Below, piece by piece: positions 465 to 47,000 of a stretch of DNA of 47,188 nucleotides (its first letter is position 1; each line of letters begins with the position of its first letter). A model generated the notes under the pieces. The model saw nothing but the letters and a program-made list of their open reading frames with translations, was not told the DNA's origin and did no database searches. This stretch comes from Perkinsus olseni (taxonomy: Eukaryota), in the NCBI GenBank assembly GCA_013115125.1, contig JABANN010000253.1:1-47188 (forward strand), given 5' to 3'. The position numbers and the translations under genes were made by a program.

Positions 465-486
465 GACGAGTAACTCGTCACGAGTT
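465..486. other. 7-8-7 excision-footprint-like scar (8-mer GACGAGTT), representative of at least 10 in the window
   Basis: gacgagt+aactcgtc+acgagtt. Same structure starts at 624, 2712, 2881, 3744, 4353, 6223, 13893, 45294 and 45823. Confidence 0.8.
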
Positions 487-944
487 CATCTTAAGCTTAG
501 CGGGCTACACGAACAACGTGACGCCGTGAAGCTACGCGGAGCAGAGGAGCCCGTGCCACGATTCACGAGTCGGACAAACCGAGGGCGTCGCAGCCGCCTC
601 GAGGACGTCTTGCGGAGCGGAAACGACTAGACTAGTCGGACTAGTAGATATCAGGGACTCACTCATTACGATTGAACGATCCGCTAGTAAGATCACGCCC
701 ACCCGCCTCGTGTGGACAGTGCACAGTGGACTACCTGCACGCACACGAGAGGCTGTCTCTAAGAGACAGTCCTTTCCGGTGCTCGACAGGCTGCCGACGA
801 CAGCCTATGACTGTGCATCGCCTGTTCGATCCCCTGCTCCTCCCTTGTACTGTATGTGACAATACGATACTCGCTCGCCTTCGGCACGCCCAGGATGGGG
901 GATGCGCTCGATAACGTTCATTCCATCAAACGTTGTTATTCACC

Positions 945-2381
945 ATGATGTCGGTGTCCCCTGTCGCGCGAGCGCTCGTTCTCTCCCTCGTCATTCAACA
1001 AGTTGGATCGGCCGCCATGCGCCCTCGGCGTCCCCTAGCACCCGCATATTACATCAGTAGCGAGGACGTGAACTTCCTTGGGAAATCGATACGTGTGAAG
1101 GTTCGCGTCAGAGCCCTTGACCCGACAGACGATAATAGAGCGTTGATGCGTGTCACCATAGGGGGAGACGGACGCGTTATCGAGATGCCTCGTTATGCAG
1201 AAATCAAGCGGTACAATGCACTGAATACAGATCGATTCTTCATACCTGGTGAGATTGGAGGCTCAAATAACGTGTTCCAGAGACAGTGCTTCACAGTAGA
1301 GCGCAACAACTGGTCGAAGGAGTACTTCGAGGAGGTGGCTCGGGGACTAGGAATCCCTCCCGCGGCTTGGGTTAGGCCTGGCTTCCGTCTCTGTCCCTTC
1401 GGGGACTTCTGGGTTATCTCCCTTGGTCGTGCGGGCGCATATAATCTTACATATCCTGTGAAGTTGAACGAGTACGCTGTGGTCAACCGCCGAGCTGGTT
1501 TCTACCGCAACAGTGATGACTTAACGGTAAGAACAACACAGTCGAGAGATACTAGCGAATATGGCTCCACCTTGAAGGTATCCCAGGTGACGATGCAGGC
1601 TATTCCATCACACATGCCGTCAGAGTCTGCCACGCCAACCAGGACTTGGGCCGCGCCAAGTTACTCAGATGACAGCCCGGACAAGACCGCCCCAGAGATA
1701 GCAACCACATTGCCAATCATTTCGGAAGCTCGTCAGGTTATTGAGACGTCTACGATGCTTCCTGCGGTAGGGTCGTACGTGAACATAGAAGCAACTGAAC
1801 ACCTCAACACGGTCTCTCTGGAATTGTCTGGTGAAGGTCAGAAATCTCTAGTCGCCTCTCTACTCATCTCTTGCATCACGGCCCGATGTTTACAGAGCAC
1901 ACTCCCAAAAGATAACTCGATGTACTTCCATCTAATTCCCTCCAAGGAAGGGAATGGTGATGCGCTGGTATTTGCTCCTCCTCCGCTAGCTTTGCTACCT
2001 TTCAATGATTGTTTGTTTGTCGACGCCACTGACAGACACGACCACAATAAGATCGCCGAGGCTTTCACTGATGCAGGAGATACGTTTGAGATCAGCAACT
2101 TCATGCCAGCGACTATTTTCGTGTGCTGGTCGCAGGACAGGGCCGCTTGGGATCTATGGCTCGGCACGAAGATAGACCGGTTAGGTGCGGTATCGCCCGC
2201 TCGAGTCGTTCCATTAGCATACACTGACGGAGTACCAACCATCAATTCCTCAGTTACACCGGAACAACTACTTGGTGAAAACAGTCAAAATGCACCAAGT
2301 GAGGAGGCCTATCGTGGTAGAAGGAAGCGACGGAGATCGTCTACGTCTGGGGTGGAAAGAGTGGAGAATCTCCTCAAGTGA
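945..2381 (+). CDS. Hypothetical secreted protein (~478 aa) with Ser/Thr-rich linker and C-terminal basic cluster
   Basis: Long uninterrupted ORF; first ATG at 945; N-terminus MMSVSPVARALVLSLVIQQVGSA is signal-like; C-terminal RGRRKRRRSS. Confidence 0.75.
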   Translation: MMSVSPVARALVLSLVIQQVGSAAMRPRRPLAPAYYISSEDVNFLGKSIRVKVRVRALDPTDDNRALMRVTIGGDGRVIEMPRYAEIKRYNALNTDRFFIPGEIGGSNNVFQRQCFTVERNNWSKEYFEEVARGLGIPPAAWVRPGFRLCPFGDFWVISLGRAGAYNLTYPVKLNEYAVVNRRAGFYRNSDDLTVRTTQSRDTSEYGSTLKVSQVTMQAIPSHMPSESATPTRTWAAPSYSDDSPDKTAPEIATTLPIISEARQVIETSTMLPAVGSYVNIEATEHLNTVSLELSGEGQKSLVASLLISCITARCLQSTLPKDNSMYFHLIPSKEGNGDALVFAPPPLALLPFNDCLFVDATDRHDHNKIAEAFTDAGDTFEISNFMPATIFVCWSQDRAAWDLWLGTKIDRLGAVSPARVVPLAYTDGVPTINSSVTPEQLLGENSQNAPSEEAYRGRRKRRRSSTSGVERVENLLK

Positions 2382-2951
2382 AATAGCGGAGTGCACGTGG
2401 ACGATCCTTAATGCAAGTGCGACTGAGCGAAAGCGGATCGGTACCAATCCTCCGTCGGCAACTTGTATTGATGAAAACATTCTATTGTTTTGCCCTCAGT
2501 TGTTGATGTCACAAGAGAAAATTTGCTTTGCGTTTGTGAATCCATGGCGTTGGTCGTCAAGACGCTTCCGTGCGTGTTCGCGCGAGAGCCGGTCGCACGT
2601 TTCAAAACTCAACTGAAGCTTCGTTGAGCATTGGGGACTGTATCTCTCTGTCACATGCTCAGTCAAAATGGGTCGCAGAGATGGCGTAGGATATGTACTT
2701 CCCAGCTCTGTCTCTCCGTCGGAGAGTCTCCGAGAACACGGCACAATTCAGACCCTCTAGTCGATGTGATTCTAGCGAATAACGAGTGAGACGATGTTTA
2801 CTCGTATGAAACACTGGAAGCCGATAAATGATTTAACAAAATAAATGTATCATGAAGGAAATATGAATAAATGATGACGAGTAGCCGGCGGCTACTAGCC
2901 GCTATGTTAGTTACGATGTTATTCGAGAACTAAGTCGGCACTAACTGAGCT

Positions 2952-3260
2952 CTAGTCGTAGCAACAGTTACATCAAAGGCCACACGTATCGAAGGCGGAC
3001 CAACAGAAGGGATTCAAGGCTTCCGCGAGGCAGGCGAGGCATGCAATACACGAGGGAGTGTCCCCGACCTGACCGCCCGCCGGTCTATCCATATCGCTGA
3101 CAATGATGGTATCATTAACGTCGTAGGGATGACCGCCCAAGGGATTCTGCTGCATGGGAGAGCCGAGCTTGTTCTCATCGTTGGACACGCTGTCACCGCA
3201 CGGGGCACCAACCGCTACACCAGTAATGAACGGAATCGTCACAATGAACGATATCTTCAT
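2952..3260 (-). pseudogene. Cys-rich prepro-peptide paralog 2 with in-frame TGA
   Basis: MKISFIVTIPFITGVAVGAP...CIACLACLAEALNPFCWSAFDTCGL*CNCCYD*. TGA at 2973-2975 sits where paralogs have W/F, and the frame continues with CxCC to TAG at 2952. Confidence 0.75.
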
Positions 3261-44800: not shown

Positions 44801-45018
44801 GAATCTCACATCAGGACCCTTGCTCTCTTGCTGTCAGAGAACTTCCAGTAGGTGTGGGCGTTGCTAACTTTTATGAGTTATCGATGAAAAACATTCAATT
44901 AATGCTCAGCGAAATACTTCAGCTTAGCTCGGTCTCGGTATTCAAGACCACCTGAATTATTCAGGCTGAATATACGGTACTGTTCCATCCGAAACTCTGA
45001 TGGTATGGTTTGTCCAGG

Positions 45019-45283
45019 GCCACGCCTCAGAGATTAGACAAAGATACGCCTCAGAGATTAGGAAAAGCCACGCCTCGGGGATTAGACAAACCCACGCCTC
45101 AGGGATTAGACAAAGCCACGTCTTCCGGGCTTGGACAAAGCCACGCCTCAGGGCTTAGACAAAGCCACGCCTCAGGGATTAGACAAAGCCACGCCTCAGG
45201 GATTAGACAAAGCCACGCCTCAGGGATTAGACAAAGCCATGCCTCAGGGATTAGACAAAGCCACGCCTCAGGGATTAGACAAA
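45019..45283. repeat. 24-bp minisatellite, 11 copies
   Basis: Unit gccacgcctcagggattagacaaa; copy 5 is 25 nt. Confidence 0.95.
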
Positions 45284-45409
45284 ATGATCATGAGATAACT
45301 TAGTTATCATAACTAACCCATATCCTTCGGTACACTTCTCTCGCTCTCATCAATCATGTTTGCCGTAACGGAAATGCCGTTTTTCCCTGTGGTAGCGGCA
45401 CCGCCTAGA

Positions 45410-47000
45410 AGCATGCATGGAAGGTATTCTCCGATCAAAAGGGAAAGAAGCTGAATTATGCCAAATCAAAGAGGTGCTAGCAACTTAGCGCTACGAGCCC
45501 CGTTCCCTTAAATCTACTTCGTCTCTGAGCTCTGGCTATTCCCAATCAGGAGCTTCACAACAAGCCGGTCGCCCTAAAGGAGACGAGTAGTATGGATGAG
45601 CAGCCTCACAAGGTGCCGAAAATGCTGAAGGCACAGGAAGAGTCTGGGAGGCTTCACGAGGTATGAGGATTTCGCGATCGTCTACCTTTGCGCGGACGTC
45701 ATAGGCGAATGCTACGCAGATTCGACTCCCTTCTAGGGTGCCGGATCTAGGCGCTTATCTAGAGTGGCCCTAGTGCTACGTCGCAAAAAATTAGCGCACC
45801 CGTTTTCCGACTCTTGGACTGCCACGTGATTCACGTGACGTGAACGAGCTTCACTCGTCGTGTACACGCCGTGAACCATACTGCTACTCAGGGAGCTATG
45901 TTCCTACGCTTCGCAGGAAATGAGCTCCAACTTTCGTGGTGACCACGACGTGGTCTAACTCTTCATTGCTCCGTAGTTTGTGAGAACTCGAAGAGTCGTA
46001 AAATATTTCCGCGGCAAATTTTTAGCATACACGGCCTGAAATCGGACCTCAAAACACCGACTTTCCCTTCAGTATTGCTGAAGATGATGAACTTCATCAT
46101 GTTTAACAATGCTCTCTCAATGTACTTGTACTCCTCAGGATATCCACGCGAAGCATTTGATTGGAGTGCTGGAAGAAAGAGTATCCAGTCTGTCGAGGTC
46201 TTTGGAAAAGCAGAAGGTTGCACTGCGGAAGGTGACTGGCCCTTCCTTTCTTAGAGCCCTTCTGCCACTGATATTCCGTGCGCATTGCAATATATTCAGG
46301 AAACAGTGGCCCGCAAGACAGCTGAGCGTAAACTTGCAAAAGTAGAAGGTACCCTCAGGAGTAAAGATGCCGAATTGGAGAGAAGGAATAAGGTACGAGT
46401 ATCGGTGCTAATACCGATACTCTATACGCCTCGATATGCCAAGACCATTCGCAGTACTGACCTTGGGCCTAAGCTCAGTACTGCCGATCAAGATTTCCGC
46501 ATGCGCCTAAGCCTTAGGCACATGCGGAAATCTTGGTGGTGGACGGGTCTCAGATTTATGGATTGTTCGAAGACGTGGAATTGTCTCGGCGCAGCCAAAA
46601 TAACTCCGAGACCCCATCGGGAACAGGTGCTCTTGGATGAGAAGCGCTTGCGGGTGAGTTCCGATACAAGGCTGCGGGAAGTGACAAAATCATTGGAGCA
46701 GAAGGAGGCCGAGCTACTTGAGGTGACTGTGGGATGTACTTGTCAAAATCACCATGAACGCGTCTCTGGGGATTGGGCCAGGAGCAAGCGGCACGCCACG
46801 CAGTTGAGCAGGACAGGGCTGAGGGAATTAAAATGCGCGAAACAACAATAGAGGAGCTTCGACTTCGTCTGGTGACAAAGGTAACAGAGTTGCAGCGACT
46901 GAGTTCACTTTCTGCGTATGACCTTCAGAATAGAAGGTTGTGCATTTTGGAACAAGAACTCCAACGAACTGGCAATCGCCATTATAGCAGGGTTATGTAA
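45410..47000 (+). CDS. Hypothetical coiled-coil protein built from phase-0 exons
   Basis: Exons ELHNKPVALKE..., DIHAKHLIGVLEERVSSLSRSLEKQKVALRK, ETVARKTAERKLAKVEGTLRSKDAELERRNK, VLLDEKRLRV..., EQAARHAVEQDR... and NRRLCILEQELQRTGNRHYSRVM*, with ag/gt boundaries; 5' end may lie further upstream. Confidence 0.6.

Follow-up and report, generated by a model that had tools for sequence, protein, structure and literature searches.

Palindromic 22-nucleotide scars in the Perkinsus olseni genome: probable hAT transposon footprints with one dominant long repair product

The DNA analysed here (the window) is a complete contig of the Perkinsus olseni genome assembly (C1692; 47,188 nucleotides, from an assembly of 39.9 Mb in 3,353 contigs), along which short palindromic scars recur in a single format. 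Each scar is 22 nt long and consists of x1–x7, the reverse complement of X (c8–c1) and x2–x8, where X is an 8-mer (a 7-8-7 structure). A direct scan of all 47,188 bases yields 22 perfect sites, seven sites with one mismatch and 15 with two (Table 1), compared with means of 0, 0 and 0.4, respectively, in 20 order-3 Markov simulations of the window. With the same 1-nt offsets, a k-mer length of 5 gives three perfect matches in the window (0.7 expected) and lengths of 6, 7 and 9–12 give none. The original prediction listed ten perfect sites, held them to lie beyond chance and placed near-perfect sites at 14029, 41826 and 43262. All ten are real and begin at the same positions with the same 8-mers, the three near-perfect sites each have one mismatch and the excess over chance is confirmed by the simulations. 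The list was nevertheless an undercount, in that 12 further perfect sites had been overlooked.

Table 1. Scars and related features in the window (X, the 8-mer; X1, X2, X7 and X8, public sequencing runs; 'overlooked', perfect site absent from the original prediction).
Feature	X	Position	Evidence
Perfect scar	GACGAGTT	465..486	in X1/X2 contigs; 12-nt excess versus 68%-identical paralog
Perfect scar	CGACTAGT	624..645	scan; in X1/X2 contigs
Cluster of older two-mismatch scars (711, 747/754, 783)		711..804	+14, +15, +14 versus paralog 2930–3620
Perfect scar	CTCTCCGA	2712..2733	scan; in X1/X2 contigs
Perfect scar	GTAGCCGC	2881..2902	scan; in X1/X2 contigs
Perfect scar	ACTCTCGA	3744..3765	scan; in X1/X2 contigs
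Perfect scar	CAAATGAG	4353..4374	+14 versus lone 8-mer at 15626–15633
Nest of odd palindromes (centres 5060, 5185) with one-mismatch scar 5205 at its end; probably one site struck repeatedly		5044..5226	X7: 18 different letters replace 5045–5219
Perfect scar	CTCCCTAG	6223..6244	scan; in X1/X2 contigs
Long two-hairpin footprint, +38, arms 7 and 11	CCGCTTTG	8220..8265	reversion joint; 38-nt gap in paralog
Perfect scar	TCAACTAT	8984..9005	scan; overlooked
Perfect scar, polymorphic between isolates	GCAAGCAC	11168..11189	scan; X7/X8 lack 14 letters at 11169; overlooked
Long two-hairpin footprint, +47, arms 26 and 6	ATTCACGA	11266..11320	X8 reversion joint
Perfect scar, directly 3' of 284-codon frame 12479–13333 (-)	GTCTCTTG	12429..12450	scan; overlooked
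Perfect scar inside 38–40-bp tandem array	CAGCCAAC	13893..13914	+14 versus sister unit
One-mismatch scar		14029..14050	scan
One-mismatch scar common to paralog near 4150, predates duplication		15425..15446	paralog alignment
Lone unscarred 8-mer, paralog of 4353 scar		15626..15633	paralog alignment
Two-mismatch scar within +28 insertion		17265..17286	paralog alignment
Perfect scar	CTCTTTCA	23632..23653	scan; overlooked
Unscarred counterpart (paralog) of 38366 scar, behind copy 1 of PP2A-like gene		35355..35362	paralog alignment
Perfect scar in intron of PP2A-like gene copy 2 (gene named by exon reading)	ACCACAAG	38000..38021	scan; overlooked
One-mismatch scar, also in copy near 39670, absent at 35355		38366..38387	paralog alignment
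Perfect scar	ATAAGGAG	39277..39298	scan; overlooked
Perfect scar	ACCCGAAT	40626..40647	scan; overlooked
Perfect scar	CAGGATTT	41703..41724	scan; overlooked
One-mismatch scar		41826..41847	scan
Perfect scar	GCTTGATT	41939..41960	scan; overlooked
Perfect scar	GCCAGGCA	42505..42526	scan; overlooked
Long two-hairpin footprint, arms 13 and 22, centres 42580 and 42622	ATCTGTAC	42567..42644	palindrome and footprint scans
One-mismatch scar		43262..43283	scan
Two-mismatch scar within +28 insertion		44367..44388	paralog alignment
One-mismatch scar		44560..44581	scan
Perfect scar	CCTGAATA	44951..44972	scan; overlooked
Perfect scar	GATAACTA	45294..45315	scan
Perfect scar	CACGTGAA	45823..45844	scan
Perfect scar, past the range of the original prediction	TCGTGGTC	45934..45955	scan; overlooked

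Comparison with paralogous sequence traces the scars back to single 8-mers. When 123 scars were used as queries, ten alignments spanned the scar site: six show a gain of 14 nt, two show a gain of 13 nt and in two the paralog carries the scar as well. The gains of 14 nt that had been described at 4353 (against a paralog) and at 13893 (against a sister repeat unit) are both seen in the alignments. Two-mismatch sites are also longer than their paralogs, by 14 nt at 711 and 783 and by 28 nt at 17265 and 44367, and the decayed class therefore represents older scars. Scars of all ages occur, and some, shared between paralogs, predate the duplications.

Contigs from the public runs X1 and X2 (from two studies), X7 and X8 were compared with the window. 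Those of X1 and X2 equal window positions 44–6350 with 0 differences, seven scars included (one of the runs may underlie the assembly); because they match letter for letter, the scars in this interval are not assembly errors. X7 and X8 are approximately 5–6% diverged from the window, and both lack 14 letters at 11169 (at a depth of 70.7 of 110.7 in X7 and 173.9 of 173.9 in X8). A 14-nt peak had been anticipated in the indels between paralogs or strains; this isolate difference and the 13 or 14 nt gained in eight of the ten paralog alignments agree with it. A joint from 8220 to 8259, found in contigs of all four runs, skips 38 nt and leaves a lone 8-mer; in X1 and X2 it is probably derived from a second genomic copy. 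A joint from 11269 to 11317 in run X8 skips 47 nt and leaves the exact lone 8-mer, so that three footprints of the window (+14, +38 and +47 nt) appear as the lone 8-mer in contigs of other runs. Separately, palindrome-bearing insertions at 8845–8882 and 9059–9104 are absent from other alleles or copies (the joints skip 38 and 46 nt).

The enrichment is confined to a single geometry. Target lengths of 5–10 were combined with offsets of 0–2 in 691 kb of the genome; k-mer counts were computed without runs of N, and one simple-repeat stretch (L038) was excluded from this grid as well as from the class counts, the long-footprint scan and the frame test. At length 8 and offset 1 there are 112 canonical scars plus 26 longer footprints, whereas the same length with offsets of 0 and 2 gives none of either kind. 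Lengths of 6, 7, 9 and 10 at offset 1 give at most two canonical sites and at most three longer footprints, and length 5 at offset 1 gives 21 canonical sites against approximately ten expected by base count. MULE and Transib/RAG transposons have target lengths of 9 and 5, respectively, and no offset, and these geometries score 0 and 3 canonical sites in Perkinsus. The counts for length 9 at offsets 0, 1 and 2 (0, 1 and 0) do not fit a MULE-type duplication of approximately 9 bp, and those for length 5 at offset 0 (3 canonical, 2 longer) do not fit a Transib/RAG-type 5-bp duplication with a nick at the boundary. Apparent 9-1-3 and 9-3-1 sites, considered as a class of their own, proved to be shifted readings of 8-1-1 scars. 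Among palindromes with arms of at least 10 nt (522 kb; approximately 0.5 in simulation), 42 have a 1-base centre, compared with three without a spacer, three with a 2-base spacer and between one and seven for spacers of 3–6. Length 8 with offset 1, together with palindromes centred on one base, is the hAT signature, and the specificity for 8-mers proposed in the original prediction is thereby upheld.

Footprints can also be classed as p + q, after the palindromic parts on the two sides. The intermediate classes (p + q of 5–7 or 9–15 within the 8-mer) hold 0–2 sites each, compared with 112 canonical scars. The 1 + 1 class has 17 sites against 13 in simulation, which is no clear excess, and the 1 + 0 and 0 + 1 classes have 73 and 59 against 52; the 0 + 0 class (901 against 241 simulated) and the 3 + 0 and 0 + 3 classes (15 and 12) include tandem and low-complexity matches. 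A short spectrum of the Ac/Ds type, mostly with 0–2 palindromic bases, is not what is seen, the short classes lying near simulation in a scan of a single genome that is blind to precise excisions and deletions.

The 26 longer footprints decide between models. In each of them, one palindrome on the left has its pivot at c8 and a second, distinct palindrome on the right has its pivot at c1 of the same 8-mer; the pivots lie at most 52 bases apart and never closer than the canonical spacing. Both arms reach at least 7 nt in 18 of the 26, and two simulations gave no such footprint. Three fall in the window. The two separate arms and the exact reversion to a lone 8-mer imply two separate hairpins with distal openings, as much as 26 bases away from the tip according to these footprints. 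The stereotyped repair outcome that had been proposed therefore stands as the dominant one (110–112 canonical scars) but not as the only one.

The extent of scarring was estimated from 51 stretches not selected for hATs (400 kb, not strictly length-weighted), which contain 40 perfect, 23 one-mismatch and 34 two-mismatch sites. Scaled to the genome, this corresponds to an estimated 4,000 or so perfect scars (bootstrap 2,300–6,100), and the density in the window is approximately five times the sample mean. One-mismatch and perfect sites stand in a ratio of 0.54, compared with 0.73 predicted by a steady-state model; scar formation is therefore long-running and includes recent events. The same model would place one scar per approximately 450 substitutions genome-wide and per approximately 100 in the window. 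No significant correlation between GC content and scar density was found across 37 stretches (rho -0.24, p 0.16). Open frames of at least 200 codons hold four of the 112 perfect scars and cover 22% of the sample, a comparison that is partly circular because a scar breaks the frame.

The scars of the window are accompanied by several other features. Two tandem, intron-rich genes at approximately 33000–35230 and 36180–38240, 83% identical overall, are named by exon reading as PP2A-type phosphatase catalytic subunits. A family of paralogous small proteins is encoded on the minus strand at 104–490, 2973–3347, 4213–4728, 5584–5973, approximately 15500–15880 and 16170–16520; its members have a signal-peptide-like start and a cysteine-rich tail, and the first has no Pfam match. 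Tandem arrays lie at 13569–14035, 12895–13085 and 45019–45283 (periods of 38–40, 36 and 24), with scars in or beside two of them, and a segment at approximately 32660–32780 resembles a tRNA gene interrupted by a long insert.

hAT elements with 8-bp duplications, the proposed source of the scars, do exist in the genome. Searches gave 11 PF05699 and three DUF4371 matches (both lower bounds) from several divergent families, each found in one or two copies. One of these (C521) represents two collapsed copies of an element and contains an open transposase frame of 791 codons, the predicted product of which has DUF4371 and hAT dimerisation (hAT-C) domains and the motifs D, D, CxxH, RW and E, which we take to have the roles that they have in hAT transposases. 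A hAT protein of this genome is the same as one labelled Perkinsus olseni and shares 76% identity with one from P. marinus, and the Perkinsus transposase is approximately 24–30% identical to DUF4371-type hATs of animals and metagenomes. The two C521 copies are identical across the 73-nt ends seen. Copy 1 (across C2937/C289) has a 16-bp terminal inverted repeat (TIR) and a perfect 8-bp duplication (ACTGTAGC), and its flanks, with 7 and 14 perfect scars per 10 kb, form the densest scar field seen. Copy 2 (C1438/C3003) lacks the outermost 2–4 bases at both ends. Its flanks are the two halves of a scar: the left one reads x1–x7 and c8–c1, then one extra palindromic base and three bases of filler, and the right one reads c7–c1 and x2–x8 of the same 8-mer, overlapped by a second scar. 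Copy 2 is probably the result of an abortive excision, the opened hairpins of both flanks having been rejoined to the element; alternatively, the element inserted into an older scar and its ends were damaged later. A further element (C293) is a broken hAT of 4,094 bp with an 11-bp TIR and a perfect 8-bp duplication (CCCAGGAG), and is itself scarred. Pattern searches with the TIRs of C521 and C293 gave 21 matches (13 in the control) and 18 matches (5 in the control), with three real ends each, for C293 by inspection. The window itself shows no hAT transposase, as had been noted originally: 38 protein queries gave no tblastn match at E 0.01, and nine element stretches gave a single 21-nt blastn match and no element remnant.

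Other repeats were seen alongside these elements. An internally deleted hAT with an Ac-like left TIR lies at approximately 390–2110 of L111 (C3205); its shortened right TIR is followed by an inverted 6-mer of the left target, and it is perhaps an abortive excision too. A frameshifted DUF4371-type hAT at 5000–8300 of L015 (C1070), of which only the 3' TIR was found, carries scars and long odd palindromes. In another stretch (L025; C2791, approximately 18,800–19,850), a 488-base core lies between the arms of a perfect inverted repeat, each at least 280 bases long; this may be a feature of the assembly. In the window, a high-copy repeat at 6272–6557 (with a partial extra 20-nt copy at 6252) has TG...CA ends and a 4-bp flanking duplication, occurs at approximately 35 times the single-copy depth in X1 and X2, is absent from the paralog near 16830 and looks like a solo long terminal repeat. 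Its ends and 4-bp duplication rule it out as the source of the scars.

The scars are thus real and genome-wide, and are best read as very densely distributed hAT footprints among which a single long repair product predominates. They display the 8-bp target, the 1-nt offset, the two flank hairpins and the single-copy origin of hAT excision, and distal opening of the hairpins and hAT elements with 8-bp duplications are demonstrated as well. Hairpin excision by a hAT transposase, as originally proposed, is supported by the geometry, the 14-nt gains and the element duplications. We consider it very probable that each scar marks a donor site vacated by a hAT transposon and was formed by distal opening of the hairpins and annealing through the inverted 8-mer. 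Insertion would duplicate the 8-bp target X. At excision the transposase would nick one base into each flank and seal the flanks as hairpins, which is established hAT chemistry, giving a left end of x1–x7, c8, c7 and so on and a right end running through c2, c1 to x2–x8. Judging from the footprints, the hairpins would usually be opened at least 8 bases from the tip, leaving two long 3' tails. Because both flanks bear the same 8-mer, the tails would carry complementary c8–c1 and x1–x8 segments, which could anneal, with flaps trimmed and gaps filled, to give x1–x7, c8–c1 and x2–x8, so that 14 bases would be gained however far from the tip, beyond 7 bases, the hairpins were opened. The joining route is probably Pol theta- or Mre11-dependent. 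Approximately one in five joins would proceed without annealing of the 8-mer and give the longer double palindromes. Low-copy elements that move without multiplying would leave one scar per jump, and scars would persist mostly outside long reading frames.

The repair genes proposed for a check were found in part. Ku80-like, Lig4-like and Mre11-like genes are present, as is a Pol theta-like gene with its helicase end and polymerase in one locus. Artemis was not recovered: the only DRMBL match is SNM1A/Pso2-like, nearer to SNM1A (E 2e-45) than to Artemis (9e-18), although an intron-rich second gene could escape such a search. A Ku_N profile search gave no match anywhere and is uninformative on Ku70. 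Perkinsus does not appear in the main text of a survey of end-joining loss in parasites (PMC6635534).

Several observations weigh against an origin from hAT donor sites repaired by annealing. The elements are scarce beside approximately 4,000 perfect scars, a ratio of several hundred scars to one element, and no allele with an element in place was found at any window scar among the rows listed (24 of 517 loose-end, 12 of 78 indel). The 'unusually active' element of the original prediction is supported neither by this result nor by families of one or two copies. No burst of miniature inverted-repeat elements was seen for the two TIRs tested (C521 and C293), and a de novo scan for TIRs with 8-bp duplications (approximately 520 kb) returned only simple-repeat matches at length 8, with low sensitivity, in that C293 was caught only at shifted boundaries. 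The flanks of copy 2 are scar-poor (1 and 0 perfect scars per 10 kb), and the pairing of its contig ends across the collapsed element is deduced from their matching flanks. The target preference of the scars is weak: T occurs at position 2 in 40% and A at position 7 in 40% of the 8-mers, both together in 18 of 112, and T2 is missing from the two perfect element duplications. No significant preference for longer microhomology was seen (71 of 224 against 60 expected, z=1.7). Finally, Ku80 and Lig4 are present, so that the uniform outcome is not accounted for by a loss of classical end joining.

The last two points also suit the strongest alternative, in which hAT excision is followed by another repair, either direct strand exchange between the hairpins or Ku/Lig4 joining of tails whose palindromic parts sum to 8. 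The position of the joint is unreadable from a canonical scar, all splits with p + q = 8 giving the same 112 sites. Blunt joining of variable tails should nevertheless populate the neighbouring p + q classes, which hold 0–2 sites each, and in the long footprints the hairpins had been opened as far as 26 bases from the tip; we regard this alternative as unlikely. Less probable by a clear step is a hAT-derived or other hairpin-forming enzyme that makes no lasting insertions, such as a domesticated transposase, or one that integrates and immediately re-excises. Such an enzyme would account for thousands of scars beside a dozen elements and for the lack of an occupied allele among the rows listed, and yeast has a domesticated hairpin-forming hAT enzyme, Kat1 (PMC4763223). 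A scar, however, needs the 8-mer on both flanks and hence a completed insertion and gap filling, the genome does hold ordinary hATs flanked by 8-bp duplications, and slow accumulation suffices because the scars are of all ages, some older than duplications. Replication template switching, which is reported to yield short inverted copies, or snap-back synthesis by Pol theta, the gene for which is present, could produce forward-inverted-forward copies without a transposon. Neither gives a reason for a fixed length of 8 and offset of 1 on both sides, where variable lengths should occur and do not, or for two long arms pivoting on one 8-mer; this explanation is largely refuted by the length and offset specificity and is very improbable. 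An assembly or library artefact, for which the fragmentation into 3,353 contigs might argue, has a negligible probability given seven scars shared letter for letter by contigs of two studies, decay by mismatches, sharing between old paralogs and the rarity in long open frames.

Returning to distal opening and annealing of hAT flanks, a broader proposal is conceivable, but somewhat doubtful: distal nicking and annealing through the inverted duplication may be the default way in which Perkinsus mends hairpin-capped breaks despite Ku80 and Lig4, in contrast to tip opening and classical end joining, and a few ever-moving hATs (or a domesticated enzyme) may act as a standing mutator that adds a frameshifting +14 scar per approximately 450 substitutions genome-wide and 100 in permissive regions. 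The scars could then be counted as a clock, and would map both the targeting of the transposase and the DNA in which they are tolerated. Excision footprints are usually too short or too varied to be recognized in a single genome. Here, a self-evident format and thousands of scars make past cut-and-paste jumps, their targets and their ages directly countable. Hairpin opening and joining are set by host factors and have been studied almost only in plants, yeasts and vertebrates; the scar spectrum is a natural read-out of both in an early-branching alveolate. The +14 scars break reading frames and mark tolerant DNA, and their presence or absence can serve to tell isolates of this shellfish parasite apart.

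The hairpin model itself is known, but three features were not found in the papers searched: the dominance of this long product, the rarity of short footprints of the Ac type and the ratio of scars to elements. The top-ranked matches of the literature searches describe neither scars like these in Perkinsus nor 7-8-7 footprints across a whole genome; figures or supplements on yeast Ds hairpins, Hermes cleavage and Ascot-1 may hold the product as one class. Ascot-1 of Ascobolus immersus is said to leave hAT footprints with biased palindromic additions. Formation of the hairpin on flanking DNA (PMC5499845, PMC6900584, PMC4763223) is shared with the MULE Muta1, Transib and RAG, but Muta1 differs in its more than 90% precise excision in yeast (PMC5499845). 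Hermes, TcBuster and Kat1 share flank-side hairpins opened by the host and an 8-bp duplication (PMC6900584, PMC4763223, PMC3499496). The Hermes target preference is nTnnnnAn (PMC6900584), and the weak lean of the Perkinsus scar 8-mers to T2 and A7 runs in the direction of the Hermes and hobo preference (PMC6900584, PMC11226609). TcBuster in human cells differs in that its footprints are insertions of a few bases as well as deletions (PMC3499496). The flank hairpins of hATs have a one-base overhang (PMC2921059), and in Ac/Ds footprints the complement of the base adjoining the element forms the centre (PMC5873905; PMC2921059). Ac/Ds in plants, Saccharomyces cerevisiae and Candida albicans shares with Perkinsus the 8-bp duplication, the palindromic additions and microhomology at the joint (PMC5873905, PMC2921059, PMC1978519). 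Its common footprints are changes or losses of one base, and arms of at least 3 make up 2.3% in Candida, 20–30% in Arabidopsis and 47% in budding yeast (PMC5873905). In Perkinsus, by contrast, there is no clear excess of the short classes, a single +14 product dominates, and the footprints form a natural record that spans the genome.

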